A DNA stretch of 60,607 bases, counting the filler, from Candidatus Aminicenantales bacterium (GTDB lineage: Bacteria; Acidobacteriota; Aminicenantia; Aminicenantales; Saccharicenantaceae), in assembly GCA_049512315.1 (NCBI GenBank). It is 8 parts of 8 records of this genome, joined end to end, with 100 filler letters (N's around TTAATTAATTAA, not from the genome) between each part and the next. Parts side by side here need not be neighbours in the genome. Positions count along the whole stretch, not along the records: positions 9,248 to 18,235 come from JBEKXF010000061.1; positions 18,336 to 27,193 come from JBEKXF010000062.1; positions 27,294 to 36,124 come from JBEKXF010000063.1; positions 36,225 to 44,444 come from JBEKXF010000064.1; positions 44,545 to 50,419 come from JBEKXF010000066.1; positions 50,520 to 56,092 come from JBEKXF010000067.1; 2 more parts are not named here. One strand, 5' to 3'. The position numbers and the translations under genes are program-made. The notes beneath the pieces were generated by a model. That model searched no databases, had not been told where the DNA came from, and saw only the letters and a list, made by a program, of their open reading frames with translations. Below, piece by piece: positions 13,617 through 54,852 of the stretch (its first letter is position 1; each line of letters opens with the position of its first letter).

Positions 13617-13833
13617 CTTGCGAACGACCCTTCTTTTGAACCTGTACCATAATAAGCCATACGTTGAAGATGTTCAAGTTTGGGGGGAAGCCCCCTCCCC
13701 GAAATTCCAATAGCCTACGGACTCAGTAGGTTTAGTAATTTTCCTAATCCGGCCGTTATCTGCGACTTGCTGACGGACATTCTTGTGTGCTTTTCGGAAC
13801 CGGTCTGAGACTATAGACCTGGAAGGAGAAAAG

Positions 13834-14196
13834 ATGACCAAGAAAAAAACGGCGAAAGTCGTCGAAGCCGTCCGCGCGGCGGTCCCGGCAGGGACGGAAA
13901 CCAAGACGAAGACGGCGGAGACCAAGGTGAAGGTCGACAAGGAGGCCAAAATCCAAGGCCAGGTCGACGCCAACGCGGCCGCCATCCTCAAGGCCCACGA
14001 CGAGGGCAAGTCGGTCAAGGAGCTCTACAAGATGTTCGGCATCGAAAAGGGCCTCTTCTGCGACCTCGTCTACATAGTCCTCTGGAAGGCCGGCCGCCTG
14101 CCCAAGAGCAAGTACGCCGAGCGCGTCGCCGCCAAGCACCCCGTGACGCTCGACCGCCGCTTCATCCACCCCAGGCCGGAGCGGAAGGAGGAGTAA
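13834..14196 (+). CDS. Small basic protein with predicted HTH (multicopy, copy 1)
   Basis: GAAGGAG RBS; Lys/Ala/Thr-rich N-terminus, AILKAHDEGKSVKELYKMFGI HTH-like segment; near-identical paralog at 53581-53979. Confidence 0.85.
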   Translation: MTKKKTAKVVEAVRAAVPAGTETKTKTAETKVKVDKEAKIQGQVDANAAAILKAHDEGKSVKELYKMFGIEKGLFCDLVYIVLWKAGRLPKSKYAERVAAKHPVTLDRRFIHPRPERKEE

Positions 14197-14218
14197 TTAA
14201 CTCGGTTCCGTCGACCCC

Positions 14219-14249
14219 AAGCCCCGCTGCCCAGGCGGGGCTTTCTTTA
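14219..14249 (+). terminator. Intrinsic terminator
   Basis: AAGCCCCGC…GCGGGGCTT hairpin followed by a T-rich tract. Confidence 0.8.
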
Positions 14250-14335
14250 TCCCCAAAAACCAGGGTTGGTCCATATCGTTCCCTGTCTCGGCCCAAGAAC
14301 GGCCAGCAGAAGAGCAGAGAGACGGCGGAAAGGGA

Positions 14336-14364
14336 TTGAAAGGGGGCATGGTCACGAGTATGAT
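14336..14364 (+). promoter_or_regulatory. Sigma-70-type promoter, repeated at 16496-16525
   Basis: TTGAAA-17nt-TATGAT here; TTGAAA-18nt-TATGAT in homologous context at 16496. Confidence 0.65.
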
Positions 14365-14392
14365 CAGTAAGAAGTCAGAAAGGAACGGTGAG

Positions 14393-14767
14393 ATGGATTC
14401 TTCTGAACGAGCATCGCATTGGATCATTAATTCTTTAGCGCCTGTTTTTGATTTCCTAGTTAAAGATCTCAGGGAGAAAGGGTATCAGGCGTCACTATCT
14501 AAGCAGACCGATAAGGCGCTGACGCTCAGTTTTTCTAAAGAAGGAAACAGGTTCGAATATACGATAGATTGTATGATAAGGCCCACGCCAATCCCGAACT
14601 GGCCTGAGAGTCATGTAGATCTTGATTGCTCTTGCCGTGTCAACAATACGAAAAGTCCCGTTCAGTTTCGAAGCATCAATGCCAAGTACGACATAGAAGA
14701 CATCAGTGAGAAAGAGATCATCGAACATTTCCGTACGACGTTCCGACGCTGGCTAAGTCATGGATAA
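14393..14767 (+). CDS. Hypothetical protein
   Basis: Lower-GC ORF directly after the promoter; start uncertain. Confidence 0.6.
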   Translation: MDSSERASHWIINSLAPVFDFLVKDLREKGYQASLSKQTDKALTLSFSKEGNRFEYTIDCMIRPTPIPNWPESHVDLDCSCRVNNTKSPVQFRSINAKYDIEDISEKEIIEHFRTTFRRWLSHG

Positions 14768-14913
14768 CGAGGCTCCGAGGGGAGCCATGGGCCTGGTGAG
14801 AGGCATAGCTCCCTCCGGTCATCAAAAGGATACTCATCGCGGTTTGGACGGCAAAAAGACAGGACCGTTTAATGGGTAAGACCACGTGGACTATAATATT
14901 AAGGGCGGCCGTG

Positions 14914-15492
14914 ATGAAAACAAGAGTGCTCATTACCTTAGGTGTTTTTCTCGGCCTATCCGGGGGAATCATCCTCGGGGCCAGGCCGTTCTGTTACGGG
15001 CACGGCCAGGAAAAGGAGGAAAGGCCGAAATTCTATGCCCTCCGGGTTGTCTCCGAAAAGAGCGTCCAAAACGCGAAGGACTCCCTGGGCGCGTCGGACG
15101 GCCGCTATGCGGAAATCCTGCCGGGCGGGCAGCTCGTCCTGCAAATGGAGAAAGGGTTTTGTCTCTTCGTTCTCGGCTCGAACCAAGAGGAAGGGGTGGA
15201 AATGATCAGCGGCTCAGTAGTCGGCAAAGGAGGGGCAGACACTAGTCTCGAACTCTGGTCTCCGTGGCAGGCCAGGGAGGGCAAATACTATTGCGGCTGG
15301 GTGGCTGTGGGACTGTCGGCGAAGGGTTTTAGCATCCCGATCGACCTTGGCCTTTACTATGACTCGAAAGGCATCACCCCTCCCTTTATAGGCAACACGG
15401 GCGTGAACACGGTCAGGATCACTAACCTCGGCACTAAATCCCTGTTTGTGGACGCCGTAATCGGATTAGATATGGAAGTGGAAAGAAAATAG
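14914..15492 (+). CDS. Hypothetical secreted protein
   Basis: Signal-like MKTRVLITLGVFLGLSGGIILG; TATAAT just upstream. Confidence 0.65.
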   Translation: MKTRVLITLGVFLGLSGGIILGARPFCYGHGQEKEERPKFYALRVVSEKSVQNAKDSLGASDGRYAEILPGGQLVLQMEKGFCLFVLGSNQEEGVEMISGSVVGKGGADTSLELWSPWQAREGKYYCGWVAVGLSAKGFSIPIDLGLYYDSKGITPPFIGNTGVNTVRITNLGTKSLFVDAVIGLDMEVERK

Positions 15493-15601
15493 GAGGCAGC
15501 CGTTTTTAGAGGCGGTATAGTGAGGGGGGGGCAGGTCATGGTAGGCACAAAACGTAACCTAGTTCCGTATCGTACGTAGCGCAACTGCATGGAGGACGGA
15601 A

Positions 15602-16183
15602 ATGAAGATCACAACCGTTATTGGCAGTCCGAGACCGCAAGGGCATGGCGCGACGATCGCAAGAGCGCTTCTGGATCTCCTGGGAGAGCACGGCACATAC
15701 GCCACGACCTACGACCTCAATCGACTCTCGTATCGTGGATGTCAAGCGTGTCTGTCATGTAAGACCACATCAGATGTCTGCGTCGCCCAGGACGACCTGA
15801 GCGCGGTCCTGAAAGACATCCGACTCTCCGACTTGGTCATCATTTCCGCGCCCGTCTTCATGGGCGAAATCAGCGCCCAGGCCAAAGGGCTCTTGGATCG
15901 ATTCTACTCGTACCTTGCGCCAGATTTTCGAACCAACCCGGGGGCGACACGGCTCCCCGCGGGAAAGAAGCTTGTCTTCATTCTGACGCAGGGGAACCCC
16001 GATGAGCAGTCGTTCGGCAGTGTCCTTTCGCGACAGCTGCGAATGTTTAGCATGTGCGGATTCACGGAGGTCTATCCCATCCATGCCTGCGGGGCAGGGC
16101 CGGGGAACGACGCCCGCGTAAATGAGAAGACAATGACGCGGGTTGCTGAGACTGCAAAGGCAATACTCGCACATCTATCATAG
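15602..16183 (+). CDS. Flavodoxin-family / iron-sulfur flavoprotein (NADPH-dependent FMN reductase family)
   Basis: GSPR motif, CxxCxxC…C cluster, APVFMG; GGAGG RBS. Confidence 0.9.
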   Translation: MKITTVIGSPRPQGHGATIARALLDLLGEHGTYATTYDLNRLSYRGCQACLSCKTTSDVCVAQDDLSAVLKDIRLSDLVIISAPVFMGEISAQAKGLLDRFYSYLAPDFRTNPGATRLPAGKKLVFILTQGNPDEQSFGSVLSRQLRMFSMCGFTEVYPIHACGAGPGNDARVNEKTMTRVAETAKAILAHLS

Positions 16184-16289
16184 AAACGGCGCGGGACTTC
16201 CTTAACAGCCGAACCCCGCCGGTCGCTCTTAGGGCCAAAACTTCAGTGCGAGGACGGAACAGCAGTGAGTATGTTGGCGTCGTGGATGA

Positions 16290-16368
16290 CGAGCGCGTCG
16301 CCGCGAAGCACCCCGCGACGCTCGATCGCCGCTTCATCCACCCCAGGCCGGAGCGGAAAGAGGACTAG
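16290..16368 (+). pseudogene. 3' fragment of the multicopy small HTH-like gene, followed by terminator (16380-16406)
   Basis: Encodes ERVAAKHPATLDRRFIHPRPERKED*, matching the C-terminus of 13834-14196. Confidence 0.85.
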
Positions 16369-16601
16369 GCCGGCCGGGACCCGCCGGCCAGGCGGGGCTT
16401 TTTTTCATCTCAAAAAGAACCTGCCTTGATCCTTACCAGTCCCTCGCCCCGTCCGAGATTGGCCAGCAGAGGCGCGGAGAGGTGGCGGGAAAGGATTGAA
16501 AAAGGAGTCTTGGCGGGGGTATGATCGAATAAAGTCAGTCGGAAGGTATTAGTCACGGCTAAGAAGAAAAGGCCGCGTGTTATCTCTAGGGACAACCAAG
16601 C

Positions 16602-17147
16602 ATGAAAGAACAAGAAAAACTGGGTGAAGCCGAATACTTCTATCCGCGGATGATCGCGGAACAGTACGACCAACTCCATTTCAAGTACAACCTAAGTGCC
16701 TTCATTCACGCTGCCCGTTCTGTGCTTGAGTATGCCGGTAAAGAACTTAACTCCAGAAAGAATCGCTCTGTTAGGCAGGTAGCGAGGGCCTGGTATGATC
16801 AGAAGGTAATCCCAGGTGGTATCCTTTATTTTTTCGGCGGCGAACGGATCAACAATTTTCATCATTCACCAGTAACCCCTGGCGTTAACATCACCCTACA
16901 GCCGGACGAGTGTTTTCAGGAGCAGACTAGTGATCACCTCTCACTGAACGGACCGTCTCCGGTTGAGATACCTCCTCCACCAGTGGTGGTGCGAGAAAAG
17001 GAATTTAAACCCCCTCCGTCACCTCCCGAATACAAGTTTACTGACTGGCCCGGTATGGAGGATATACCGACGCTATGCAGAAAGTATCTAGGTGAACTTG
17101 AGCAGTTTATCAAGGAGGGAGTGTCGCTAGGTTACATATCGGGATAG
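16602..17147 (+). CDS. Hypothetical protein, HEPN-like
   Basis: Helical N-terminus (EAEYF…NLSAFIHAARSV) and an R-x4-H motif (RINNFH). Confidence 0.6.
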   Translation: MKEQEKLGEAEYFYPRMIAEQYDQLHFKYNLSAFIHAARSVLEYAGKELNSRKNRSVRQVARAWYDQKVIPGGILYFFGGERINNFHHSPVTPGVNITLQPDECFQEQTSDHLSLNGPSPVEIPPPPVVVREKEFKPPPSPPEYKFTDWPGMEDIPTLCRKYLGELEQFIKEGVSLGYISG

Positions 17148-17159
17148 AGGAGGGTGGAG

Positions 17160-17591
17160 ATGTGGCCATTTTCAAAGAAGAAAAAGCAACCCGAGGTGAA
17201 AATCGACGAAGAGAACCCCAAGCAACCTATTACGCTACAGTGGAAATTCGACCCTGTGGCAACCCAACTGATGTTAAAGTCCAAGGAATCAAAATTCCCA
17301 AGGAAGGAACCTGAGGCAACACTCGAGGTAAAGTTGGATTGCCCGACCTGCAAACAGGTACTTGAGAAGTACTCGAAGAACAGATTCAAGTGTCCGCACT
17401 GCCGGAATTGGATATACTTCCTGGATAATCGCCTTGTGACTGAGGAAGACTATGGGCGGCTTCGGGAAGGTTATTACCGACGCCGTTATGAGGAACGGCT
17501 CAAACGGTCAATGGCAGAAGACTTGGCGAAGCTCGGGTTGAGCGAAGAGATGCTCCAGCAAAGAGAACAGGAGCTGGCCAGGAGTGCTTGA
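17160..17591 (+). pseudogene. Zinc-ribbon-containing hypothetical protein truncated by IS insertion
   Basis: CPTC…CPHC motifs; its stop codon lies inside the IS end starting at 17585. Confidence 0.7.
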
Positions 17592-17668
17592 CGTCAACGA
17601 AATTCGGACAGGAATTGATTTCTCCTAAGCTATGGTTTCCAATAACAAAACCAAGCTAGGAGGAATGA

Positions 17669-18040
17669 ATGACAGGGAAACAGGGAAGCTCACCGGAATC
17701 GATCGTCCGGGAGATCAAGCGCCAGACCCGCCGGAAGTTCACGGCCGAGGAAAAGATCCGGATCGTCCTGGAGGGCCTGCGGGGCGAGGCCGGCATTACC
17801 GACCTCTGCCGGAAGGAAGGCATCCATCCCACGATGTACTACAAGTGGAGCAAGGCGTTCCTCGAGGCCGGCAAGAGACAGCTCAACGGGGACACCATCC
17901 GGGAGGCGGGCTCCGATGAAGTCAAGGAGCTCCGTTTGGAGAACGATGCTCTGAAGATGCTGGTGGCGGAGCTGACGCTCCGGAACCGGACGTTAAAAAA
18001 AACATCTCAGGGTTTGGAATCCGGATCCATCGATATATGA
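17669..18040 (+). CDS. IS3-family transposase OrfA
   Basis: RRKFTAEEKIRIVLEG HTH plus leucine-zipper-like ELRLENDALKMLVAEL. Confidence 0.9.
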   Translation: MTGKQGSSPESIVREIKRQTRRKFTAEEKIRIVLEGLRGEAGITDLCRKEGIHPTMYYKWSKAFLEAGKRQLNGDTIREAGSDEVKELRLENDALKMLVAELTLRNRTLKKTSQGLESGSIDI

Positions 18041-18235
18041 GGTATACGCAGTCGGAGAAGATGGAGATCATCCGGATGGTCGAGGAGTCCTCGCTGAGTG
18101 TCCAACGGACATTGCGAGAGATGGACGTTCCCCACAGTTCTTTTTACGAGTGGTACGGGAGATACAACGAAGAGGGCTATGATGGATTGGCCTCTCAGCC
18201 TAAGGATCTGCGGCAGGTGTGGAACAAGATCCCGG
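18037..18235 (+). CDS. IS3-family transposase OrfB, N-terminal part (contig edge)
   Basis: MRYTQSEKMEIIRMVEES…SSFYEWY; ATGA overlap with orfA. Confidence 0.85.
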
Positions 18236-18456
18236 NNNNNNNNNNNNNNNNNNNNNNNNNNNNNNNNNNNNNNNNNNNNTTAATTAATTAANNNNNNNNN
18301 NNNNNNNNNNNNNNNNNNNNNNNNNNNNNNNNNNNGGCGAAGGGAATACAATCGCTTTAGGCCGCATAGCTCGTTAGGCTATAGGCCGCCGGCCCCGGAG
18401 GCATATTTGGCTGGAAAATTCACTCAAGGGCTGGTACATTGATCGGGGGCGGGTCA

Positions 18457-18688
18457 GGAAGAGGCGACAAAGCCCATGCACACAGAGGCCTTCACCGCCG
18501 GATTCTTCGAGTCAAAGACGTGGGGCCGGAAGTACCCAAAGATTCAACTGTTGACGATCGCCGATCTCCTATCGGGGAAGAAGATCGACATGCCGCCGGT
18601 CAAACAGGTCGGCGCGACCTTCAAGAAGGCGGAGAAGTTCGTTAAGGACAAGGCTGTCCAATACGAATTAACGGAGAAAGAAAAGTGA
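18457..18688 (+). pseudogene. C-terminal remnant of a DNA methyltransferase/restriction-endonuclease-type protein
   Basis: EEATKPM…AGFF…YPKIQLLTIADLL…IDMPP resembles C-termini of methylase-Mrr-type fusions; the frame starts exactly at the family A IS end (18456). Confidence 0.65.
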
Positions 18689-19362
18689 GCTGGGCGTCTC
18701 AGGCGATTAACTTCCTAAATCAAAACAGCGGCGCAATATTGGCCCTCACTACCATCATCTATGCATTGATCACAAGCCGGATGCTTTACGAAACCAAGAA
18801 GATGCGGCAATCACAGACTGAGCCCGACGTGTTCATTACTGTCCAGCCCCAGGAAGGGGCAAGGGTCATATTGAACCTGGTTATCCAAAATATCGGCCTG
18901 GGTGCCGCCTATGATCTAAGGTTCAAAGTGGAGCCGGACATTAAGTTGCGATCCGGAAAGAACCTTTCAGACATTAACTTCATGAAACACGGCTTCAGAT
19001 ATCTTGCCCCAAAGCAAAAGCTAGAATGTTTCATAGCCAGTTCCATGGAAGAGGCGCAAAAAAAAGAAAACATCCTGCGCGAGATCACGGTCTACTACCG
19101 GAACAAAAACGAGAAATCCTACGAAGCCACTTTTGTGCTGGACTTCATGGAATACTTTGGAATGATGCACGTCGATGCCGACCCGTTCAAGGGCATTGTC
19201 GATAAGCTGGAAACCATTCACAGGGACTTTGACAGTGTCAGCAAGTCCAGCGACTCAAAGCTCTGGGTAGTCGCCTATACCAAGCAAGAGTATGAAGAAG
19301 AGGTCAGAAAACAACTTGAAGAGTTTGAGGAGATGGAAAACCGGCAGAAGGAAAAAAATTGA
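18685..19362 (+). CDS. Hypothetical membrane-anchored protein
   Basis: N-terminal TM helix, IQNIGLGAAYDL motif; GTGA overlap with the upstream remnant. Confidence 0.75.
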   Translation: MSWASQAINFLNQNSGAILALTTIIYALITSRMLYETKKMRQSQTEPDVFITVQPQEGARVILNLVIQNIGLGAAYDLRFKVEPDIKLRSGKNLSDINFMKHGFRYLAPKQKLECFIASSMEEAQKKENILREITVYYRNKNEKSYEATFVLDFMEYFGMMHVDADPFKGIVDKLETIHRDFDSVSKSSDSKLWVVAYTKQEYEEEVRKQLEEFEEMENRQKEKN

Positions 19363-19380
19363 GGTGCTGAGGCAACAACA

Positions 19381-19695
19381 ATGCGACAGAACGTCGGTCT
19401 CCTTTTCTTAACCCTAGGGTCAGTGATTCTCAGTATTTGTGTGTTCCCGAGGAGGCTCATAGGAAGTTGGAAGGACTATACCTGGGAACAGCGGCTGTTT
19501 CTAAAACTGATTGGAGAGAGGGAATTTTTCGAGGCTAAGCGTAACGCCGAGGAACATGTACTGCGGATGCAGAGGGATAAGAAATATGCAAGACGTGTGG
19601 AGTGCCGTGCGAGAATTCGAGCAGACCTACCCATCATAGCGATCGTAATGATGTTGTTTGGTTTTTTCCTGTGCTTCAACTACTCAGCGTTTTGA
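19381..19695 (+). CDS. Small two-TM hypothetical protein
   Basis: Hydrophobic segments at both termini; co-oriented in the gene array. Confidence 0.55.
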   Translation: MRQNVGLLFLTLGSVILSICVFPRRLIGSWKDYTWEQRLFLKLIGEREFFEAKRNAEEHVLRMQRDKKYARRVECRARIRADLPIIAIVMMLFGFFLCFNYSAF

Positions 19696-19732
19696 GGCGC
19701 AGAGGGGAGTCAGAGGCCAAAAGGGAGGTAAC

Positions 19733-20293
19733 ATGTGGCCGTTTAAGAAAAGCGCGGATTCACCCGAACTCAACAAAGACGAGCCGGAGTTGTCCGTATT
19801 GCCAACAGACGCATCTATGTTGCCAGGCTTCAAGAAGGACTCCGAGGGGAGGATCTCCGTCGAGTTCACGGAAGAAGAAAAATATGAAATAGATAAATGC
19901 CTAAAGCAATTATCGAAGCCGGGTGGAGTTTATATCCACCCAGAAGTCTACAACGGAATGGTTGCTCATGCCCTCTCGGACTATTCACAAAAACAATTCA
20001 GTTGGGTGACGACGATGCTCAGCGCAGGTGAAGAAGTAGATAAAGAGGGAGCCGCAAATCTTGCTATCAACGCGATTATGAAAGCCTACGCGATTTACCC
20101 ATTGCCGATTTTTCTTTTTCATCTTGCTGAGTATTTTGAGTTGATCGGAAAACGGCGAGCCGCAAAAGAGGTCTTTAGGTTCTTCCTGAGCAAGGAGACA
20201 GAGTACGTACCTACCCCCCTATCTGAGATGCTTCTAAGAGCGGAGTTGATAAGTCCAGCTGAGGCCATTGATAGGGCGAGACGGGAGTTATAG
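19733..20293 (+). CDS. Hypothetical protein (helical, TPR-like C-terminus)
   Basis: GGGAGG RBS before ATG; MWPFKK N-terminus. Confidence 0.7.
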   Translation: MWPFKKSADSPELNKDEPELSVLPTDASMLPGFKKDSEGRISVEFTEEEKYEIDKCLKQLSKPGGVYIHPEVYNGMVAHALSDYSQKQFSWVTTMLSAGEEVDKEGAANLAINAIMKAYAIYPLPIFLFHLAEYFELIGKRRAAKEVFRFFLSKETEYVPTPLSEMLLRAELISPAEAIDRARREL

Positions 20294-20443
20294 CGGACCT
20301 ATGGGAGAGGCGCTGAGGGGAGCCAGAGGCCCCAGAGGGCATGGCCCCCGAATGATCAATAGGACGCCGGTAAAGGCGGATGATCGTGCATTCTAAAGGA
20401 TAGACGACCAGACGCGGGGGAAATTCTCATTGGGAGGAATAAC

Positions 20444-21475
20444 ATGACCATTGAAGAACGCTTGGAGAACATGGAACGAGAGCTGGGGCATGTCAAGCGG
20501 CGCAACCGCTGGTTGTTGGGTGCAGTCCTACTTGTCGCTGGGGGGCTGGTCGTCCCCACAGTTTTGGAAATGACGGCCCTCCGGGCAGGGGCACGAGTGA
20601 CTGGAACGGCCAAGGAAATCCGGGCCAATATTTTCGTCCTTGAGGACGAAAGCGGCAAGGTTCGCGCCGAGCTGATCGCGGACAAAGATGGCCCGCGGCT
20701 CTCGATGTTTGACGAAGGTAGGTTGCCTCGTGCCAACTTGGTCGTTTCCAAAGATGGTCCGGGTTTTTCGCTGGTCGGTGAAAATGGCAAGTTTGGTGCC
20801 GCTCTGGTCGTGCGTAACGGTGGCCCGGTGTTGATTATGGCAGACAAAAATGGTAAGCCTCGCGCCAGCGTGGCCGTGTCCAAAGATGGTCCGGGGCTTT
20901 CGCTGTTTGACGAAAATGGCAAGTTACGCGCCGACCTGGTCGCGCGAAATGATGGTCCGGGTCTGATTATGAACGACGAAAACGGCAAGTTACGTGTCCA
21001 GCTGACCGTGCCTGACGACGTTCCGGGGCTTTCGCTGTTTAAAGAAAATGGCGATGTTCGCGTCCGGCTGGCCGCGGACAAGGATGGCGCGGAGCTTTCG
21101 CTGTTTGACAAGAATGGCAAGTTACGCACCGGCCTGGACGTGCATATCGAGGGCCCGGGTCTGATCATGACCGACGAAAACGGCAAACTTCGTGCCAGCG
21201 TGGCCGTGCTCAAAGATAGTCCGGGGATTTTGCTATTTAAAGAAAACGGCGATGTTCGCGTCCAGCTGGCCGCGGACAAAGATGACGCGGGGCTTTCGCT
21301 GTTTGATAAGAATGGCAAGTTACGCACCGGCCTGGAGGTGCGCAAGGATGGCCCATGTCTGATTATGACTGACGAAAATGGTATTGGCCGCGCTGCATTG
21401 GTCGTGTCCAGGGATAACTTCGGGTTTTCGCTGATTGACAAAAACGGGAAGGTTATATGGAGCGCCATAAAATAG
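20444..21475 (+). CDS. Membrane-anchored beta-repeat protein (about 12 x 22-aa repeats)
   Basis: Short coiled coil, TM helix, then repeats of D-E/K-N-G-K-x-R-x-x-L-x-V-x-x-D-G-P-G-L-x-L/M. Confidence 0.85.
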   Translation: MTIEERLENMERELGHVKRRNRWLLGAVLLVAGGLVVPTVLEMTALRAGARVTGTAKEIRANIFVLEDESGKVRAELIADKDGPRLSMFDEGRLPRANLVVSKDGPGFSLVGENGKFGAALVVRNGGPVLIMADKNGKPRASVAVSKDGPGLSLFDENGKLRADLVARNDGPGLIMNDENGKLRVQLTVPDDVPGLSLFKENGDVRVRLAADKDGAELSLFDKNGKLRTGLDVHIEGPGLIMTDENGKLRASVAVLKDSPGILLFKENGDVRVQLAADKDDAGLSLFDKNGKLRTGLEVRKDGPCLIMTDENGIGRAALVVSRDNFGFSLIDKNGKVIWSAIK

Positions 21476-21592
21476 AGGCAGGCGCCGCTAAGATGAAATC
21501 AATCCTCATTATGAAGGACGTCCGGAGGCGGGCAGGCCTTCTTATGGTGCTAATTAATTGGGAATAAGGGAATCCTCGTTAGTTTCAAAAAG

Positions 21593-27293: not shown

Positions 27294-27414
27294 CCGCCTC
27301 CCGGAGCAGGGTGATGATCTGCTCCGGATTAAACCGTTTCCTGGCCATGTCCACCTCCCTCGATCCAGCAGAATCTTAGCACACGGGCTGGATCCCTTTG
27401 AGGGGGGCAGGTCA
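27294..27414 (-). mobile_element. IS3-family (IS407 group) left end with orfA start
   Basis: TGACCTGCCCCCCTCAAAGGGATCCAG… and MARKRFNPEQIITLLREA; identical to 50301-50419. Confidence 0.9.
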
Positions 27415-44728: not shown

Positions 44729-44739
44729 CCTTGATTGCA

Positions 44740-44980: not shown

Positions 44981-44999
44981 GCCAAGCCTCCTTGCGAGG

Positions 45000-46542: not shown

Positions 46543-46681
46543 GCCCGGAGGGATTTGAACCCCCGGACCTAATCCCTGAAAAATGGCCCAGACATAATGT
46601 GAGCTTTCTGGAGGTCTGACGCCAAGATTGTCCGCGCACTGGATCCACAGTCCGATACTCTAACCGTTAAGTTACGGGCGC
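46543..46681 (-). pseudogene. Split tRNA-like pseudogene (anticodon GTG) interrupted by an IS-end-like repeat
   Basis: 5' half GCGCCCG-TA-ACTT-AACGGTTA-GAGT-A-TCGGA-CT-GTG-GA-TCCAG (46681-46639); T-arm GGGGG-TTCAAAT-CCCTC-CGGGC (46564-46543). Confidence 0.55.
46565..46611 (+). repeat. Family C repeat (IS3-like terminal inverted repeat)
   Basis: GGACCT(C/A)ATCCCTGAAAAATGG…CATAATGTGAG…TTCTGG; copies at 48236-48256, 52183-52240 and inverted at 57487-57536. Confidence 0.75.
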
Positions 46682-47114
46682 ACCAAATCAAGGGGGGATA
46701 TCCACATAAGCGGCGGCTTGGTAGAAGGTAGACGAATCCCCGTGTCCCGCCGGCGTCACAGAGAGTGCTTAAGACCCGCTAAAATGGACTAGGGGTGCCT
46801 AATCGAAAGACGATTAAAAAATGCCTATTTCCAGGGGAAACGCCAACCAACGGGGGACGCCTGACCAAGTGGGCGAAAACGCGAAATAGGATTTTGAGTC
46901 CCGTGCGTATGTTCACACCTGCACGAACCCCCCCTCCCTGTCGGAAGTGAGAAATTCGCCCGCATGTTTACGTTTATCCTATCGAGGTCACTTTCCGTCT
47001 GAAATAATGACTGTCAAGATTTGTGACGTGTTGGGGGCTAAAAAGAGCTTAAAACGACTAACTCGGGCTTAATCCGTTTCCCCTGATTTCCCCTGTTTCT
47101 CGGGGAGTTGTCGT

Positions 47115-47161
47115 CCGATTCGTAATCAGTAGGTCGGAGGCTCAATTCCTCTCGCTGGCTC
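47115..47161 (+). pseudogene. 3' half of tRNA-Thr(CGT), att-site-like remnant
   Basis: GATT-CGT-AATC anticodon arm, AGGTC, GGAGG-CTCAATT-CCTCT T-arm; no 5' half. Confidence 0.65.
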
Positions 47162-47300
47162 TCCCATATTCCCAGAGAAATCAACCATTTAGTCATCATC
47201 CCCAGCGCTCTAAAATTGTCGCAATTTTGTACAACTTTACACCGTTTTAGGCCTCTGCTGAGCACAATTTCAGCACAGCAAGAGCCCCCTCTGCATCCCA

Positions 47301-47373
47301 GACCCATCATCCCCCAATCGAGGCCAAGGCGGAAATAGCCTGCTCTGAAATTCGCGATACTCGGCAGGCATAT
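47301..47373 (-). repeat. Family D repeat (about 75 bp; probable right end of another IS3-family element)
   Basis: Copies at 49654-49726 and 56510-56581; the minus strand encodes MPAEYREFQSRLFP, reminiscent of OrfB C-terminal PAEY motifs. Confidence 0.7.
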
Positions 47374-47577
47374 CGCCTTGCCGGGGGTTCGAACCTTGAA
47401 AATTTCAGTTCACAGCTGGTACATTGAGCGGGGGGCCTCCGTTTTTAAGTGACGCTCCATACCACAATCGGGTTATGATAGGGTCGGCATCGCTACCGCC
47501 TGCGATTTGAGCAGTGGCTCATATCATGTGATATAATGAGCAGGATTTTAAGGCACTGAACCGGGAGACTTTTCACC

Positions 47578-48198
47578 GTGAAGAAATGGGCCGTTTATTT
47601 CTTTTGCCTTCTCACTTTCGCCTGCGGTGCCGCAGCTACCTATTTTGTCATGGTCTATCTGCAGGCCGGCAATCATGGTCAGGCATATTTATCAAAGAGT
47701 TTTTCGTCTAAGGGAGCGGAGGCGCCGGTTTATGGCGAAGGTGCCCTCGCACAAAAGGATTTAATCCCTTTTCCGAAGATCAACAATCTCAATTTTAGGG
47801 CAAAATTTTTCGAGCCTGCGGGGGCTGCCGAAAACTCGTTGTCGCTCAGCTATATCGCGGAAATATCCGTAGAGAAACTGGATAAGAAAGACCTCCCTGA
47901 GAAGTTCTTCAAGATGTTCGAAGAAGCGAGTACCAAATGGATGTATGTCCCGCCTGACGACGTCTTGTATGAGATATCCTTCAAAGTTGCATTATTGGAC
48001 AAGGACGGCTTTCAGATTTTCAGCACCGATTCGCCGACGGAAACTATCCGCTCCGGAGAGCTCAACCATGTCCAAAATATCGTGACTGACAAGATTCCTT
48101 GGGATATCGCTAAAAGGACGAGGGCCATCAAACCTGGCGTTGTGCTGAAGAGATGCGTCAGGCCTCTCTATCGCGAGAAAAGCCCCATCACTGGCTGA
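47578..48198 (+). CDS. Hypothetical membrane-anchored/secreted protein
   Basis: N-terminal hydrophobic helix; LLDKDGF motif; TGATATAAT extended -10 upstream. Confidence 0.7.
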   Translation: MKKWAVYFFCLLTFACGAAATYFVMVYLQAGNHGQAYLSKSFSSKGAEAPVYGEGALAQKDLIPFPKINNLNFRAKFFEPAGAAENSLSLSYIAEISVEKLDKKDLPEKFFKMFEEASTKWMYVPPDDVLYEISFKVALLDKDGFQIFSTDSPTETIRSGELNHVQNIVTDKIPWDIAKRTRAIKPGVVLKRCVRPLYREKSPITG

Positions 48199-48345
48199 AA
48201 TCGCCCGCTGGGATTGGTATCGTGCCTGAATCGAAGGACTTCATCCCTGAAAAATGAACCTGATCAGGGGGAAGTCCAGACGCTTGAAAATCTCACTTCT
48301 GGGGTGGGACATTGAGCGGGGGCAGGTCACCTGAACGTGCGCAGC

Positions 48346-48374
48346 TTGACTTACGATTCCCAGTATCATATAAA
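48346..48374 (+). promoter_or_regulatory. Sigma-70-type promoter
   Basis: TTGACT-17nt-TATAAA upstream of the OmpA-family gene. Confidence 0.6.
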
Positions 48375-48399
48375 GGTTGGCGAAAAGGAGGGTGTTAGC

Positions 48400-49494
48400 A
48401 TGAGAATGCCCCGAGCCTGCTTTAGATTGGTATTGCTGCTGGCCGCGATCGCCGCTCTGACTGCCGCGGCCACATCAGCGCTTCAGGTGGCCTCGACTCC
48501 GCCTCAGGCATCCGCGCAGCCCGACCTCACCGCGGTGAAGGCTGATTTCGTTCCCGGCGATAAGATCATTTTTTACGACGACTTCAGCGATATGGTCGGC
48601 GATGAGCCTCCGCCCCACTGGAAGGTCCGCGGCGGGGCGGTGGAGCTGAGGGTCGGATCCGGGGTCCGCCAGCTCACGGTCATGAGTGAGAACCCCAGAC
48701 TGACCCCGATGCTCAAGGGGCTTCCCAAGAATTTCACCCTCGAGACCGAATTGAAATTCGACGACCCCGTCGATGTGCGCTCCATCTGGTATCTCTACGA
48801 CCAGACCTGGGACGGGCCCACCGGACCCGACGCGGCGCTGCGCGTATTTTTGCAATCCCAGACGGGGGCCCTCTCCGTTCAGGTCAGGCACAGCGGAAAG
48901 GATGGGGTCGAGGACCTTGCCAACACCTCGGTCCAAGTGGACTTCAGCCAGCCGGTGAAGGAAGCCGTCTGGGTGCAAAACGGGCGGCTGCGGGTCTATA
49001 TCAACGGGGAACGGGCCGTCGACGTGAACCAGGTCGAGCTCCCCCCGCTGACGGGCGCGGAACTGGGGCCGGAATACGGAGAGGGCAAGCTCGGCTATCG
49101 CATGGTGCGCTTCGCCGAATCGACGCCGGATTTCAGCCAGGTGATCTCGTCGTCGGGCCGCTATGTCACCCACGGCATTCAGTTCGACACGGACAGCGAT
49201 CGGCTGAAACCCGAATCGGCACCGATCATCAAGTCCGTCGCGCGGGGTCTGGAGACGAATCCCAACCTCAAGCTCCAGATCGAAGGGCACACCGACTCGA
49301 CAGGGAACGCGGACCACAACCTCGACCTTTCGAAGCGCCGCGCGGAGGCCGTGAAGGCCGTGCTGGTGTCGCAATTCAAAGTGGACGCCGCCCGGCTGAC
49401 GACCGTCGGCCTTGGTGCCACGAAGCCGATCGATTCGAACGACACGCCGCAGGGTCGTGCTCAAAACCGACGCGTGGAGTTCGTGAGGCAGTAG
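48400..49494 (+). CDS. OmpA-family peptidoglycan-binding protein
   Basis: Signal peptide, DFVPGDKIIFYDDF, IEGHTD…LSKRRA…NRRVEF. Confidence 0.9.
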   Translation: MRMPRACFRLVLLLAAIAALTAAATSALQVASTPPQASAQPDLTAVKADFVPGDKIIFYDDFSDMVGDEPPPHWKVRGGAVELRVGSGVRQLTVMSENPRLTPMLKGLPKNFTLETELKFDDPVDVRSIWYLYDQTWDGPTGPDAALRVFLQSQTGALSVQVRHSGKDGVEDLANTSVQVDFSQPVKEAVWVQNGRLRVYINGERAVDVNQVELPPLTGAELGPEYGEGKLGYRMVRFAESTPDFSQVISSSGRYVTHGIQFDTDSDRLKPESAPIIKSVARGLETNPNLKLQIEGHTDSTGNADHNLDLSKRRAEAVKAVLVSQFKVDAARLTTVGLGATKPIDSNDTPQGRAQNRRVEFVRQ

Positions 49495-49855
49495 GCGGGC
49501 AGCAAGGCTGCTAGAATATTCTCAGTAGACTTTTGACCTGCCTCCCGCGCTAATTAGTATTTAATACTTTAGTATTTAATACTTCTTTAATACTAATTTA
49601 TAAGCTTCTTCACCTATCCTCTCGCCTCGACATTCTTTCGGAAAGCATACCAGAACCCGTCATCCCCCATCCGAGATCAAGACGGAAATAGCCTACTCTG
49701 AAATTCGCAATACTCGGAAAGGATATGGCCTTATCGGGCGGGAGTTCGGAGTGACCTGCCTCCCCCTTGATCACCATTGTAATCAACGATAGATGGGAAA
49801 GGAGTGTGCCCGGCAGGGGAGCATACTGACCAGCATGTGACTAATCAGGGTCTTG

Positions 49856-49918
49856 GTTAGATAGAGCGTTGGACTCCGGATCCAAAGGTCGGAGGTTCGA
49901 ATCCTCTCAGGCACGCCA
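49856..49918 (+). pseudogene. tRNA-Arg(CCG) lacking its 5' acceptor/D strand (att-site-like)
   Basis: GATAGAGC-G-TTGGA-CT-CCG-GA-TCCAA-AGGTC-GGAGG-TTCGAAT-CCTCT-CAGGCAC-GCCA; no complementary GTGCCTG at the expected position. Confidence 0.75.
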
Positions 49919-49921
49919 TTT

Positions 49922-50300
49922 CTAATTCGTTGAAATTCCTGAAGTTACAGGATTTTTCGGCTTCCCCGTCAGGCTCGATTTTCTCGCCGTGTCACAACCG
50001 TGTAACAGATTTGCCCTATTTGGGGCCCCAATGGGTGTTTTTTCAGCCAGCCTGTCTACGGCAGTCCGGCGTCTTTCGTCGGTCGAATGGACGTACCGCT
50101 GGGTCACCGCAATACTCGCATGGCCAAGGAGGGAGCGGACGGTTTCGATGTCAACCCCCCTCTCAACGAGCCTCGATCCGAACGTATGCCTTAAGTCATG
50201 GAAGCGTAGTCCCGCTATCCCGACTCGCCGGCAGGTAGCCACGAAGGCAGTCTTCACCGTCGTGAGTGGCTTCCCGGTCTTGGGGTTGGGGAACACATAG
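49922..50300 (-). pseudogene. Tyrosine recombinase/integrase C-terminal part, interrupted by IS
   Basis: FHDLRHTF…LLGHASIAVTQRY catalytic motifs; the stop lies 3 bp from the tRNA CCA; IS end at 50301. Confidence 0.9.
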
Positions 50301-50419
50301 TGACCTGCCCCCCTCAAAGGGATCCAGCCCGTGTGCTAAGATTCTGCTGGATCGAGGGAGGTGGACATGGCCAGGAAACGGTTTAATCCGGAGCAGATCA
50401 TCACCCTGCTCCGGGAGGC
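50301..50419 (+). mobile_element. IS3-family (IS407 group) left end with orfA start
   Basis: Identical to the reverse complement of 27296-27414; ATG at 50367. Confidence 0.9.
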
Positions 50420-50519
50420 NNNNNNNNNNNNNNNNNNNNNNNNNNNNNNNNNNNNNNNNNNNNTTAATTAATTAANNNNNNNNNNNNNNNNNNNNNNNNN
50501 NNNNNNNNNNNNNNNNNNN

Positions 50520-50935
50520 GCCATCTCCTCGGTCGCTCCCAAAGTGTAGATGAAGCCGGTCGAGATCTTTCTCGGAAAAAGCGTCGCTGGCGGGTCGACA
50601 TACGGGGAGAAGGGGAAAAGCAGGCGTTCCATGAATGATTTCATTTGTCCTGTAACCGTTCCAAAATAGACCGGTGACCCGAAGATGAGGGACTGAGCAT
50701 CCAGGACCCTCTTCAGGATAGGTGTCAGGTCATCCTTGACGGCGCACCTGCCGTAGCTTTTCCCGTTTTTCGTCTTGCAGGCAAAACAGCTGACGCACCC
50801 CTTGTAGTCCAGGTCATACAGATGGATGAGATCGGTTTCAGCCCCCTGCGACGAGGCTCCTTCCAAGACTTTTTCAAGAAGTGTCGCCGTGTTCCAATTC
50901 TTTCTTGGGCTTCCGTTGAATGCATTGACTTTCAT
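50520..50935 (-). CDS. Flavodoxin-family / iron-sulfur flavoprotein, partial
   Basis: NGSPRKNWNT, CVSCFAC and GSPVYFG motifs. Confidence 0.88.
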
Positions 50936-51071
50936 CTTCGATCCCTCCCATGAACCTGATAAATAGCTCTTTCCATTGCCAGAGTCATCATCACCGAATC
51001 TGCTATCAGCGATAACAATCTATCAATTGAATGATCATCACTTGCCGAGATCCAAGGCGTGCCGCCATTCC

Positions 51072-52109
51072 CTAATGTGACTTGTTTGAGTTTTCCGCCT
51101 TGTGCTGTTCGTAGAGGTCGTAATGGACTTTGAGGATATCCGGAATGGGCAGCTCATAGGGGCAGCGGGCGACACATTCCCTGCATTCCGTGCACAATGA
51201 AACGCTCTCCATGGGGATCTTAGAAAATTCGACCGAGACCTTGGGCGACATCCTGGCTGCCAGCACCTTGTAGCCCATGGCCGCGGTGATCATGACTCCT
51301 TGAGGACACGGCTGGCAGTACTCACACCTCCGGCAGAACTGCTTGCCCAGCTCCAGGCGATATTTTTCCATCAGTTTGAGATCTTCTTCTGTGACCTTGT
51401 TCGGCCGCTGATATAATGATACAACTTCATCCACCCGTTCCGGGGAATCAAAACCCGGAATGGCGATCACATCGGGGTGCTCCCGCAGGAACTTGAAAGC
51501 GACCCGGGCATTGTCGATCATGCCCCCGGCAAATGGCTTCATGGCAAGGATCCCCATGCCGTGTTCGCGGGCTGTAATGTGGAGTTCGTCTTTTGCCGCA
51601 TCCTCGATGAAATTGAAGGGAAACTGCACCGTGCTGAACAAGCCGGTCTTAACCAGCTTGATCGCCATGGCAAGGTTGTGGGAAGTGACCCCGATATATC
51701 CGATCTTGCCCTGTTCCTTTGCCTTGACGACGGCCTCCATCACACCTCCCGGCCCGGTCACGATATCCATGTCTTTTTCCTGGGCGATCTGATGCAGCTG
51801 GTAGATATCTATATGATCCGTCTTCATCATGCGGAGAGAGTTCTCCAGTTGTTCGACAGCACCCGGGGCGTCTCTGCGAGTCGTCTTGGTGGCAAGGATG
51901 ACCTTGTTCCGCACGTCCCCCAAGGCACGCCCGATCTTCTTTTCACTGTCACGGTAGGCATTGGCCGTGTCGTAGAGGGTTATCCCCGACTCATACGCCC
52001 TGCGCAGGACATCCACAGCTGCGTCTTCGTCAAGGCGGATGATTGGAATGGCCCCAAAGCCCACCTCGGAAACGGTCAACCCTGTCTTTCCTAAGGGGAT
52101 GTAACGCAA
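51072..52109 (-). CDS. Aldo/keto reductase with C-terminal 4Fe-4S dicluster
   Basis: LGKTGLTVSEVGFG, YDTANAY, CRRCEYCQPCP, CTECRECVARCP. Confidence 0.93.
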   Translation of the reverse strand: MRYIPLGKTGLTVSEVGFGAIPIIRLDEDAAVDVLRRAYESGITLYDTANAYRDSEKKIGRALGDVRNKVILATKTTRRDAPGAVEQLENSLRMMKTDHIDIYQLHQIAQEKDMDIVTGPGGVMEAVVKAKEQGKIGYIGVTSHNLAMAIKLVKTGLFSTVQFPFNFIEDAAKDELHITAREHGMGILAMKPFAGGMIDNARVAFKFLREHPDVIAIPGFDSPERVDEVVSLYQRPNKVTEEDLKLMEKYRLELGKQFCRRCEYCQPCPQGVMITAAMGYKVLAARMSPKVSVEFSKIPMESVSLCTECRECVARCPYELPIPDILKVHYDLYEQHKAENSNKSH

Positions 52110-52263
52110 TGTTCAACCTCTTATGATCATGTCGGATTCTTAATGTTAAGCATTCCCATGATCATTTGCAAGGCTTCGGGACGGGCCTCATTCCTGAAAA
52201 ATGGTCCACCCATAATGTGAGTTTTCTGGCAAAATCTCAAAGAGGACGTTAGAAATAACCGGC

Positions 52264-52399
52264 CTAGTCCTCCTTCCGCTCCGGCCTTGGGCGGACGAAG
52301 CGGCGGTCGAGGGCCGCGGGGCGCTTGGCGGCGACGCGCCCGGCGTACTTGCTTGAAAATCTCAATTCAGGGGTAGTACATTGAGCGGGGGGTAGATCA
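52264..52399 (-). repeat. Chimeric repeat: 3' fragment of the small HTH-like gene fused to a family A IS end
   Basis: Minus strand SKYAGRVAAKRPAALDRRFVRPRPERKED*; junction GCGTACTTG-CTTGAAAATCTC recurs at 54770-54839. Confidence 0.8.
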
Positions 52400-52514
52400 G
52401 TGTGAATGTCCCGAAATAGGAGGAGCAGGCCAGCGCAGCATGAAAGCCGCCGTCTATAGTCTTCAAGCTGACCTGTAAGTTGTCAAGCAAAAACAGGCAC
52501 AAAAGGATATCAAT

Positions 52515-53492
52515 ATGAAAGCAATCGTCTATTACAACTACGGTTCGCCCGATGTTCTCAAGTGTGAAGAGATTGAAAAGCCGACGGCTGGGGACGATGA
52601 AGTTTTGATAAAAGTTCGCGCGGCTTCCGTCAATCCAGCAGACCGGCTCTTCCGAGGTACGTCGTACATTGTTCGCATACTGACTGGACTGCGCAAACCA
52701 AAGGACGCACGACTAGGCCGTGATGTGGCCGGCCAGGTTGAAGCGGTTGGCAGGAACGTAACCCAGTTCAAACCAGGTGACGAGGTTTTCGGCGCGTGCC
52801 GTGGGGCCTTCGCGGAGTATGCGTGTACTTCCGAGTCGGCATTGGTCATGAAGCCAGAGAACGTGACGTTTGAGCAAGCGGCTTCTGTACCTGTGGCGGC
52901 ACTCACCGCATTGCAGGGTCTTCGCGACAAGGGACAGATTCAGCCGGGGCAGAAGGTCTTGATTAACGGTGCGGCAGGAGGCGTGGGTACGTTCGCTGTG
53001 CAGATCGCTAAGTCGTTCGGTGCAAATGTGACCGGCGTATGCAGTACGAGGAATGTGGACATGGTGCGATCCATCGGTGCAGATCACGTCATTGATTATA
53101 CTCGAGAGGATTTCACCAAACGTGGGCAACGTTATGACCTGATTTTCGACTGCGTTGGCAACCATCCTTTGTCAGCATGCAGGCACGTCTTAAATCCCAA
53201 GGGCATATGCGTCCTCGTCGGAGCACCCCACAAAGTCTGGATTGTTCTGATTCGTGCACTCAAAGCGCTTGCGTTGTCACGGTTTGTGAGCCAGAAGTTC
53301 GTCATGTTTATCGCGAGACGGAGCAAAGAGGACTTAACCATCATGTGCGATCTCATGAAGACCGGAAAGGTAACACCGGTCATCGACAAGCTTTACAAGT
53401 TGAGTGAGGTCCCTGACGCTATCCGGTATCTGGAAGAAGGGCATGCTCGAGGAAAAGTAGTAATAACTTTGGAATATAACAGCAAAATGTGA
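52515..53492 (+). CDS. NAD(P)-dependent alcohol dehydrogenase / quinone oxidoreductase (MDR family)
   Basis: AASVNPAD, INGAAGGVG and GHARGKVV motifs. Confidence 0.92.
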   Translation: MKAIVYYNYGSPDVLKCEEIEKPTAGDDEVLIKVRAASVNPADRLFRGTSYIVRILTGLRKPKDARLGRDVAGQVEAVGRNVTQFKPGDEVFGACRGAFAEYACTSESALVMKPENVTFEQAASVPVAALTALQGLRDKGQIQPGQKVLINGAAGGVGTFAVQIAKSFGANVTGVCSTRNVDMVRSIGADHVIDYTREDFTKRGQRYDLIFDCVGNHPLSACRHVLNPKGICVLVGAPHKVWIVLIRALKALALSRFVSQKFVMFIARRSKEDLTIMCDLMKTGKVTPVIDKLYKLSEVPDAIRYLEEGHARGKVVITLEYNSKM

Positions 53493-53580
53493 TGACCTGC
53501 CCTCCTTAAAACGAGCTGAGAACATACATAAAAAGCTCCGCCGGCCAGGTTGGGCTTTTCGTCCGGCGGCACGGGCCGCC

Positions 53581-53979
53581 TTACTCCTCCTTCCGCTCCG
53601 GTCTTGCATGGACGAAGCGCTTGTCGAGCATAACGGAGTGCTTGGCGGCGACGCGCTCGGCGTACTTGCTTTTGGGCAGGCGGCCGGCCTTCCAGAGGAC
53701 GATGTAGACGAGGTCGCAGAAGAGGCCCTTGTCGATCCCGAACATCTTGTAGAGCTCCTTGACCGATTTGCCCTCGTCGTGGGCCTTGAGAATGGCGGCC
53801 GCGTTGGCGTCGACCTGACCCTGGATCTTGGCCTCCTTGTCTTCTGCCGCCTTGGCTGGCTTGGCGGCTTTCGCCTCCGCCTTCGCCTTGGTCTCCGCCG
53901 TCTTCGTCTTGGTTTCCGTCCCTGCCGGGGCCGCCGTGCGTACGGCCTCGACGGCCTTCGCCGTTTTTTTCTTGGTCAT
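53581..53979 (-). CDS. Small basic protein with predicted HTH (multicopy, copy 2)
   Basis: Paralog of 13834-14196 with a 12-aa longer Ala/Lys linker; shares about 145 bp of upstream sequence. Confidence 0.85.
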   Translation of the reverse strand: MTKKKTAKAVEAVRTAAPAGTETKTKTAETKAKAEAKAAKPAKAAEDKEAKIQGQVDANAAAILKAHDEGKSVKELYKMFGIDKGLFCDLVYIVLWKAGRLPKSKYAERVAAKHSVMLDKRFVHARPERKEE

Positions 53980-54216
53980 CTTTTCTCCTTCCAGGCCTAT
54001 AGTCTCAGACCGGTTCCGGAAAGCACACAAGAATGTCCGCCGGCAAATCGCAGATAACGGCCGATATGCGGAAAACACTATTCCTACTGGGACCGTAGGT
54101 TATCGGGATTTCGGGGAGGGAACTTTAAGTTGCGCGGTGAAGTGGAGACTGCCCTCGCACTTTTTGACAAGCCGAGGCCAGCGATTCATAATAAATAACT
54201 ACAAAAAGGAGATTCT

Positions 54217-54762
54217 ATGACCCCCAATAAATTCACCGCCCTGGATGTCATTCACTCCCGCAAGAGCGTCCGCGAATTCACCGGAGAGGCCGTGGCCCGC
54301 AAAGACTTAAACACTATCCTCAGAGCGGCCATGGCCGCGCCGTCCGCCGTCAATTGCCAGCCCTGGGCGTTCGTCGTGGTCACGGAACACGCGATGCTGA
54401 ATACGCTGGCCGACGGGTTGCCCTATGCCCAGATGCTGCGGCGGGCCGGGGCTGGGATCGTCGTCTGCGCCGTTGTGGAGAAGGCGTTCAACAAGATAGC
54501 CGAGTTTGCCATCATCGACAGCGCCCTGGCCGCCCAGAATATCCTTCTGGCCGCCGAAGCGCTGGGGCTGGGCGCGGTCTGGACCGCCGCCTATCCCGAC
54601 CCAGGGAAGGCGGCTTTCGTCCGGGAGACGCTCGGTATTCCCAAGGACGTGATCCCGCTGGCCGTCATTCCCGTCGGATACCCGTCCGGCGCCGAAGAGC
54701 CGAAGGACAAATTCAAGGAAGAAAACATCCATTGGGAACGCTGGAATTATAGCGGGCTATAA
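54217..54762 (+). CDS. Nitroreductase family protein
   Basis: SRKSVREF, AAPSAVNCQPW and LGLGAVW motifs. Confidence 0.93.
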   Translation: MTPNKFTALDVIHSRKSVREFTGEAVARKDLNTILRAAMAAPSAVNCQPWAFVVVTEHAMLNTLADGLPYAQMLRRAGAGIVVCAVVEKAFNKIAEFAIIDSALAAQNILLAAEALGLGAVWTAAYPDPGKAAFVRETLGIPKDVIPLAVIPVGYPSGAEEPKDKFKEENIHWERWNYSGL

Positions 54763-54852
54763 CAGAGTCGCGGCGACGCGCTCGGCGTACTTGATTGAAG
54801 ATTTCGCTTCTAAGATGGTATCTTCGGAGGGGCAGGTCACCGAATCAAGCGT

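Follow-up and report, generated by a model that had tools for sequence, protein, structure and literature searches.

The stretch of DNA analysed here (the window; 60,607 nucleotides, filler included) consists of eight separate contigs of one assembly of a Candidatus Aminicenantales bacterium (GenBank:GCA_049512315.1), joined by N spacers, and carries two full copies of an orphan gene that probably belongs to the backbone of integrative islands. Copy 1, an open reading frame (ORF) at 13834-14196 on the plus strand, encodes 120 aa and is located on contig C61 (9248-18235); copy 2, at 53581-53979 on the minus strand, encodes 132 aa and is located on contig C67 (50520-56092). A preliminary description of the window had placed both in a single span, 13689-54839; with the copies on different contigs, this span is an artefact of joining and is without meaning as a distance. 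The description had also stated that the copies share upstream DNA, which was confirmed: they are alike at 334 of 399 bases within the gene and at 124 positions of the 142 bp upstream, the next 100 bp being alike at 49. This upstream region, termed motif U, is located at 13689-13833 (+) for copy 1, with an operator-like inverted repeat, CCTAC-N7-GTAGG, at 13714-13730, and at 53980-54123 (-) for copy 2.

Copy 1 is followed by an intrinsic terminator (14219-14243, in a feature extending to 14250, +) and by a block, P (14257-14364, +), which contains TTGAAA (14336) and TATGAT (14359) with a decayed insertion sequence (IS)-type tip, GGTCA, between them at 14350-14354. A displaced 3′ fragment of the gene (16283-16368) is likewise followed by a terminator (16380-16396) and a second block P, the whole being at 16283-16543 (+); the two TTGAAA-17/18-TATGAT sites are at 14336-14364 and 16496-16525. 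Behind copy 2, the terminator is followed by an IS3-left-end-like tip (53493-53580, -). Two of the three 3′ fragments in the window abut a 46-bp IS3-type end, termed X: 1) the fragment at 52264-52353, which is followed by an IS-left-end-like piece, W2 (the two together at 52181-52353, -), and is fused to X at 52353-52399 (-), where a plus-strand TTGAAA-N18-TACATT (52353-52382) faces a dehydrogenase gene, and 2) a 24-bp fragment (54770-54793) fused to X at 54795-54839 (together 54770-54839, -). The start of motif U also occurs alone at 10376-10423 (+), directly after a C-terminal remnant of a terminase large subunit (10236-10370, +; tblastn, 62% over 45 aa, E 1e-11). The solo motif, the three fragments, the terminators and the two promoter sites had all been described before, except that one fragment starts at 16283 and not at 16290; the terminase remnant, the IS3-type ends at two fragments and some 20 more gene pieces genome-wide are additions to that description.

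The genome under study (G000) is 96.6% complete, and the comparison set comprised 41 genomes. Hidden Markov models (HMMs) for 26 repeated pieces were mapped onto G000 and 50 loci; 8 loci near-identical to G000 contigs were excluded, and so were 15 further near-duplicates for most counts. Matches to the orphan gene were present in 4 of the 41 genomes (25 at the protein level in G000, 16 in G003, 5 in G002 and 1 in G009). The pieces in G000 were 2 intact genes, 1 cut by a contig end, 5 damaged or retaining only the 5′ part, and about 20 3′ fragments, five weak single-module matches (C1, C8, C10, C30 and C46) being treated as false. The ratio of nonsynonymous to synonymous substitution rates (dN/dS) over 17 full copies was 0.21, indicative of purifying selection; the orphan is therefore a real gene.

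Searches revealed no known prophage or housekeeping family to which the protein could be assigned. It has 61 close relatives, those with titles being from Candidatus Aminicenantes, and a search of 1.84 billion representative proteins returned 24 matches, all of them members of the orphan family or pieces thereof; no longer fused form was found among 8000 candidates, which is weak evidence. Pfam gave DUF6115 alone, below threshold, NCBIfam and PADLOC gave nothing, the best PHROGs member had E 0.002 with none consistent, no credible match was found among PDB sequences, and viral contigs, plasmids and phage records contained no match to the family. A transposase origin was dropped after profile comparison with IS3 OrfA (probability 0.7%). 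The structure model (predicted local distance difference test score 61.5) has helices at 32-56, 61-68, 75-85 and 93-101 and a Lys/Ala-rich, low-confidence N-terminus; Foldseek gave nothing at E 0.001. With VIA-align (best Z 5.0), the DNA-binding domain of DeoR (Z 4.8, root-mean-square deviation 2.9, 56 aligned), a TrpR-like fold (Z 4.5) and the G20C small terminase (Z 4.4) were weakly matched, tied with unrelated helical proteins, and Atlas leads pointed to a helix-turn-helix (HTH) at 0.78-0.80. The protein is basic and, as modelled, weakly HTH-like. In 20 of 27 distinct U copies the repeat arms are intact, and the spacer occurs in 13 forms; kept arms with a variable spacer are the pattern of a candidate operator. 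The likeliest role of the protein, at about even odds, would be that of a dimeric DNA-binding regulator of CCTAC-N7-GTAGG before its own gene.

Probable backbone genes around the orphan gene

The full terminase large subunit gene matched phrog_2 (E 3.7e-25; Atlas 0.99), and motif U starts directly after the terminase stop codon in 7 of 11 terminase ends; the place of the solo motif at 10376 is presumably ancestral. Both window copies are linked to a terminase, copy 1 through the remnant at 10236-10370 and copy 2 through locus L054, in which an independent assembly joins C50-C77-C67, with an intact terminase some 11.5 kb upstream of the copy. Upstream of that terminase are a short tyrosine recombinase gene and a primase-polymerase gene. 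In the downstream direction, the stacks of cargo genes end in a large serine recombinase gene whose 3′ end abuts a tRNA gene, namely tRNA-Arg, -Ser, -Leu, -His or -Glu. The terminase clade and the recombinase clade were each found in 3 of the 41 genomes, the same three that have multiple gene pieces. In G003, 14 of the 16 gene pieces are located within 20 kb upstream of a recombinase and on its strand, in three clusters, compared with a chance expectation of about 1%. The three genomes together have 7 recombinase loci, 5 of them with gene pieces upstream. With a terminase upstream and a serine recombinase and tRNA downstream, the earlier suggestion that the gene marks an uncharacterised integrative element is supported.

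Portal PF04860 and HK97-type capsid PF05065 were absent from G000, although divergent forms could escape such models, and none of 48 neighbouring ORFs matched capsid, portal or small terminase subunit (TerS) families. Virion structural genes and phage relatives, by which an ordinary prophage would be recognised, were not found.

The serine recombinases at G003:C27, C7, C9 and C24, G002:C25 and G000:C2 form one clade, associated with five tRNAs (Arg-CCG, Ser-TGA, Leu, His-GTG and Glu-CTC); at G003:C7 the recombinase ORF reads through the tRNA. A basic ORF of 55-59 aa overlapping the recombinase start codon was recovered at 6 of 7 loci (L003 near 17595-17775, and also L024, L029, L032, C2 and C38), and this conserved ORF is a candidate recombination directionality factor, as the orphan protein may be too. 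Such a factor is reported to bind at the junction of DBD2 and the coiled coil of a large serine recombinase and to switch its direction (PMC12286644). It was also noticed that a tRNA-Arg(CCG) model has 45 matches genome-wide in G000, located in islands, many of them partial and some being other tRNAs, and that the same islands hold 19 pieces of the end of a kinase-tetratricopeptide repeat gene.

IS3-type ends and the polarity of the stacks

Motif X is 46 bp long, matches an active element of IS3 type at 30-36 of 46-48 positions of its right end, and shares the TG tip of the IS3 family. It has 59-60 matches in G000, about 8 of which are ends of active IS elements, and none in the reversed genome. 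X-like ends were found in 16 of the 41 genomes, and X is therefore older and wider than the orphan gene. In G001, which lacks the gene, the X arrays still carry a transposase tail, and at one of its loci (L093; G001:C16:1-11000) six X ends of the same orientation occur within 10 kb, all of them with an ORF leading outward. The related intact element matches NF033516 and is one which we take, from its OrfA sequence and 4-bp repeat, to be of the IS407 group. That group is listed with a 4-bp repeat, and its ends are said to carry outward promoters (PMC3281130); single cases of IS-end promoters fixed before genes have been described (PMC9330008).

In the outward reading, TTGAAA occurs in 61 of 82 copies of X, followed by N18 and a TAnnnT-type -10 box with conserved T, A and last T, and the conservation of X stops just beyond the -35 box. 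At X tips, 66 ORFs start outward and 27 end when active IS ends are included, versus 227 starts and 298 ends at the other linker edges (Fisher p 9e-7); with active IS ends excluded, there are 53 starts versus 24 ends over the 82 copies. X is thus shaped like a promoter, and is predicted to act as a ready-made outward promoter for the genes at its tip. IS-type tips often start 5-6 bases inside the inner edge of X (L068:3620-4885; C20:1982; C11:4193; C32:34512), which suggests targeted insertion there.

Block P had been proposed as a portable terminator-promoter platform for downstream genes. In the window the block is real, but both boxes are present in 8 of its 32 distinct copies (in 6 once two cross-genome orthologue pairs are removed), and the next ORF downstream of the 3′ ends is more often antisense (42) than sense (30). 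The two-box copies lead into four different genes; in four other copies the -35 box lies inside an IS-type tip and the -10 box is poor or absent. As judged from sequence, P is probably a minor route of expression, and X, facing the opposite direction, is the commoner promoter candidate. At 74 ends 33 hairpins were found, 12 of them with an A-run, and termination in both directions is thereby partly supported.

The island regions consist of single genes or small clusters between mosaic linkers of 100-400 bp, and they are strictly polar. Around 18 full genes, 17 fragments are located downstream and 0 upstream over similar lengths of DNA, and in 38 of 39 cases a 3′ end points the same way as its neighbour. 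On the right-hand side of 3′ ends and terminators, an ORF ends in 24 instances and begins in 5. The fragments have a dN/dS of 0.31 and no stops in 47, a result that the identity filter used favours, and they look as if cut repeatedly from working genes. Fifty ORFs at X tips represent 43 families, in agreement with the variable cargo described before.

This polarity, 17:0, is unexpected from transposition, and bears on the possibility that the gene belongs to a non-autonomous element of IS3 type, 650 bp long and bounded by IS-like ends (a mobile insertion cassette), on which IS407-group transposases would act in trans; the fragments would then be its internal deletions. Such an element would fit with the IS-left-end-like tip found after 7 of 24 full-type 3′ ends, with TGACCTGC or a similar sequence at several U starts, and with the presence of active IS3-family elements whose ends match; the left tip is clear in few of 29 U starts. 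Inspection by eye of 41 listed closed units and 20 cargo segments revealed no target duplication, as against the 4-bp duplication of an intact IS3-family element located inside a linker at L061, no clean empty site was present among the flanks examined, and U comes after the terminase stop. The 650-bp element, our initial reading, was demoted on account of the lacking duplications, the polarity and the position of U, and we now regard it as very unlikely. A self-contained non-autonomous unit, as the preliminary description had proposed, thus finds no support, nor does a miniature inverted-repeat transposable element; counting across the assembly gave 25 matches, but the right boundary downstream of the gene proved variable and no clean empty site emerged.

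The starts of the fragments fall into two classes. Among 57 fragments, 26 follow X, and 21 of these begin at the same 1-3 bases; the 31 without X begin at scattered points over about 70 bp. The first class, the strict polarity and the short tyrosine recombinases of the backbone would agree with an integron-like array in which the 3′ end of the gene is a genuine attachment site, used in trans by a site-specific recombinase (the short tyrosine or the serine enzyme). The scattered starts of the second class do not fit a fixed site, and the X junction could be a single ancestral event copied many times. Moreover, none of 23 matches to the IntI model TIGR02249 in G000 exceeded the cut-off. An attachment site at the 3′ end is accordingly quite unlikely.

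Identical cassettes recur among new neighbours across genomes, and of the 83 points at which shared blocks end, 48 lie within a linker (16.5% expected by chance). These observations are also relevant to a neutral origin, in which intense IS3 activity broke up several related prophage or satellite remnants, leaving the linkers as scars that serve neither the gain nor the expression of genes. The genome is indeed strewn with IS ends, tRNA pieces and kinase ends, most gene copies in G000 are truncated, and backbone genes are often broken. Under random decay one would not expect X to be conserved as a promoter would be, the ORFs at its tips to be biased in orientation, the stacks to be polar or cassettes to be reused in new neighbourhoods, and the lack of portal and HK97-type capsid genes in G000 does not point to prophages; we judge this explanation to be unlikely.

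A possible origin of the stacks and comparison with known systems

The reading we favour, with a probability of about 0.62, is that the orphan gene is part of the backbone of capsid-less, phage-satellite-like integrative islands in one Candidatus Aminicenantes genus, where cargo is stacked by sequential displacement. The genus is one of uncultured, peat-dwelling bacteria. A complete island would be ordered as (primase-polymerase), short tyrosine recombinase, unassigned ORFs, terminase large subunit (TerL), motif U, orphan gene, terminator, cargo stack, 56-aa ORF, large serine recombinase and tRNA. It may be integrated by the serine recombinase and packaged by a helper phage. An IS3/IS407-type element would insert beside a gene to be captured and later lose its body, leaving the 46-bp right end with its outward promoter. 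Incoming DNA could then recombine with the resident island, the orphan gene serving as homologous anchor, while its far end would be joined either through short homology or illegitimately, at scattered positions. In this way the 3′ end of the resident copy would be displaced downstream together with its terminator, cargo would accumulate on both sides of the gene, and the resulting linker would supply a promoter facing left, an anchor for recombination and a terminator. Later recombination between linkers may reshuffle cassettes between islands.

Several observations weigh against this reading. A direct repeat of the tRNA at the far end was found at G003:C7 only (29 bp of tRNA-Ser, 33 kb away, with lower guanine-cytosine content between; at 86% it is weak), and the second tRNA piece on C2 is inverted. 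The recombinases of C38 and G003:C24 are without a gene piece, C2 is the only stack in G000 with a recombinase on the same contig, most stacks being without one, and no terminase was found in the 9-10 kb or so upstream of five full-gene loci (L002, L039, L051, L053 and L058). Among the shared-block ends, 35 of 83 are outside any modelled linker, the orientation bias of X in G000 alone is 24 versus 15, and the structural matches behind the HTH assignment do not exceed Z 4.8. ORF calling followed a crude longest-ORF rule, the loci come from related strains and are non-independent, which makes the p-values too strong, and short-read assembly joins at repeats could imitate part of the reshuffling. 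Parts of C61 and related junctions were recovered in the contigs from four DNA runs, none of which spanned the whole stretch.

A further proposal, which we hold tentatively, is that X acts as portable promoter and recombination site with the 3′ end of the regulator gene as entry, giving an integrase-free collection of expressed cassettes in a satellite having TerL only. It is conceivable, and again doubtful, that in such a collection any chromosomal gene beside an IS, including whole rpoD and groEL, becomes an expressed cassette that can be stacked, reshuffled and moved with the satellite. ComEC is present; being common, it carries no weight as evidence. Polar stacks on IS-end promoters seem unreported, none having been found in the open-access literature. 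If true, an outcome like that of integrons, i.e. polar, expressed and reshuffled single-gene cassettes, would arise from leftover IS ends and ordinary recombination, and genes would be gathered without an integron inside a capsid-less terminase island. Uncultured peat bacteria would then have a route for duplicating housekeeping genes (rpoD) and acquiring metabolic ones. The analysis also yields a candidate promoter of 46 bp, a candidate operator with its regulator, and a serine recombinase clade for at least five tRNAs with a candidate directionality factor beside it.

Phage-inducible chromosomal islands (PICIs) resemble the present islands in having an integrase, a terminase gene and accessory cargo, and one copy here (C50) also has a primase. 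PICIs are characterised by TerS or capsid genes, and capsid-forming PICIs by a set of capsid, portal and terminase genes, whereas TerL alone was found in the islands of G000; in addition, no helper phage is known here, and viral contigs and phage records contain no match. Tycheposons of Prochlorococcus target tRNAs by means of an integrase and vary in their metabolic cargo; some carry a packaging gene, and their remnants together with partial tRNAs build genomic islands (bioRxiv 10.1101/2020.12.28.424599). The islands described here are alike in having cargo with a site-specific integrase at a tRNA, the serine recombinase ends abutting tRNAs. Most tycheposons, however, use a lineage-specific tyrosine recombinase with TerS or a capsid protein in place of a serine recombinase with TerL, and cargo here stacks at the 3′ end of a protein gene via IS-end linkers.

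Polar displacement without a known integrase is described for immunity arrays of the Vibrio cholerae type VI secretion system and for orphan modules of Rhs and contact-dependent inhibition loci (PMC5361080). There, too, a conserved anchor gene is the point of entry for new DNA, which pushes older 3′ pieces back; in the present case the anchor protein is unchanged, and the cargo genes, of metabolic, regulatory and defence-like kinds, are unrelated and come with a promoter of their own. Promoters borne by IS elements (PMC3281130, PMC9330008) offer a parallel for an IS3/IS407-type right end with an outward promoter that can persist as a remnant, but these are single cases, whereas about 60 X matches per genome, trimmed past the -35 box and arrayed, are present here. 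Neisserial intergenic mosaic elements (PMC1797815), as repeated short DNA, and direct-repeat arrays of IS26 (PMC7885326), as IS-derived repeats, likewise have a proposed or demonstrated role in the exchange of adjacent genes; unlike both, the linkers here are mosaics of IS end, gene end and terminator in satellite-like islands.

Cargo and other features of the window

The C61 part of the window starts with the 3′ part of a second rpoD as cargo (9248-9889, +; Pfam Sigma70 r2-r4), matching the copy of G003, its last codons being replaced by an IS end, the X relic at 9853-9898 (+; HMM match, 30 of 46 identical to the active IS3-type right end). The complete second rpoD lies between two X tips in G003:C7 near 98150-100170, with an altered C-terminus, and is common to G000 and G003; C17:1-290 belongs with this cassette, and another rpoD is on C18 of G000. 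The X tip of the rpoD cassette sits in what is presumably the end of dnaG. Between the X relic and the terminase remnant are repeated non-coding linker pieces (Z and V) as well as a left-end remnant from another IS (9942-10231, identified on module maps).

The cargo between the two upstream motifs of C61 is a gene for a TonB-dependent-receptor-like protein (10566-13100, -; Pfam Plug, CarboxypepD_reg and OMP_b-brl_4). Downstream of copy 1 are an ORF of unassigned family (14393-14767, +), with paralogues behind the same block on C20, C43 and in G002, then genes for a 192-aa protein without assignment and a flavodoxin-like reductase (14914-16183, +), and, after the second block P, two ORFs of unassigned family (16602-17591, +). 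Beside copy 2 are a zinc-binding dehydrogenase gene (52515-53492, +), convergent with the terminator of that copy, and a nitroreductase gene (54217-54762, +), which adjoins U on C43 too.

Other loci carry cargo of housekeeping type, such as GroEL (PHROGs; L060:3388-5004) and ATP synthase subunit b (Pfam; L058:8493-8912), and ORFs which from their motifs we take to be pyruvate-kinase-like (C20 near 2035) and phosphoketolase-like (C11 near 4140). Several cassettes (L003, L049 and L027) encode predicted serine hydrolases of beta-lactamase fold (Pfam PF00144). An Rfam search of the sequences returned tRNAs alone. The assembly is broken by the ends of two multicopy IS elements, located in the window at 17589-18235, 1-118 and 60303-60410 for one and at 18337-18456, 27296-27414 and 50276-50419 for the other, and contig C60 is filled by an ORF of 2628 aa (815-8701, -).

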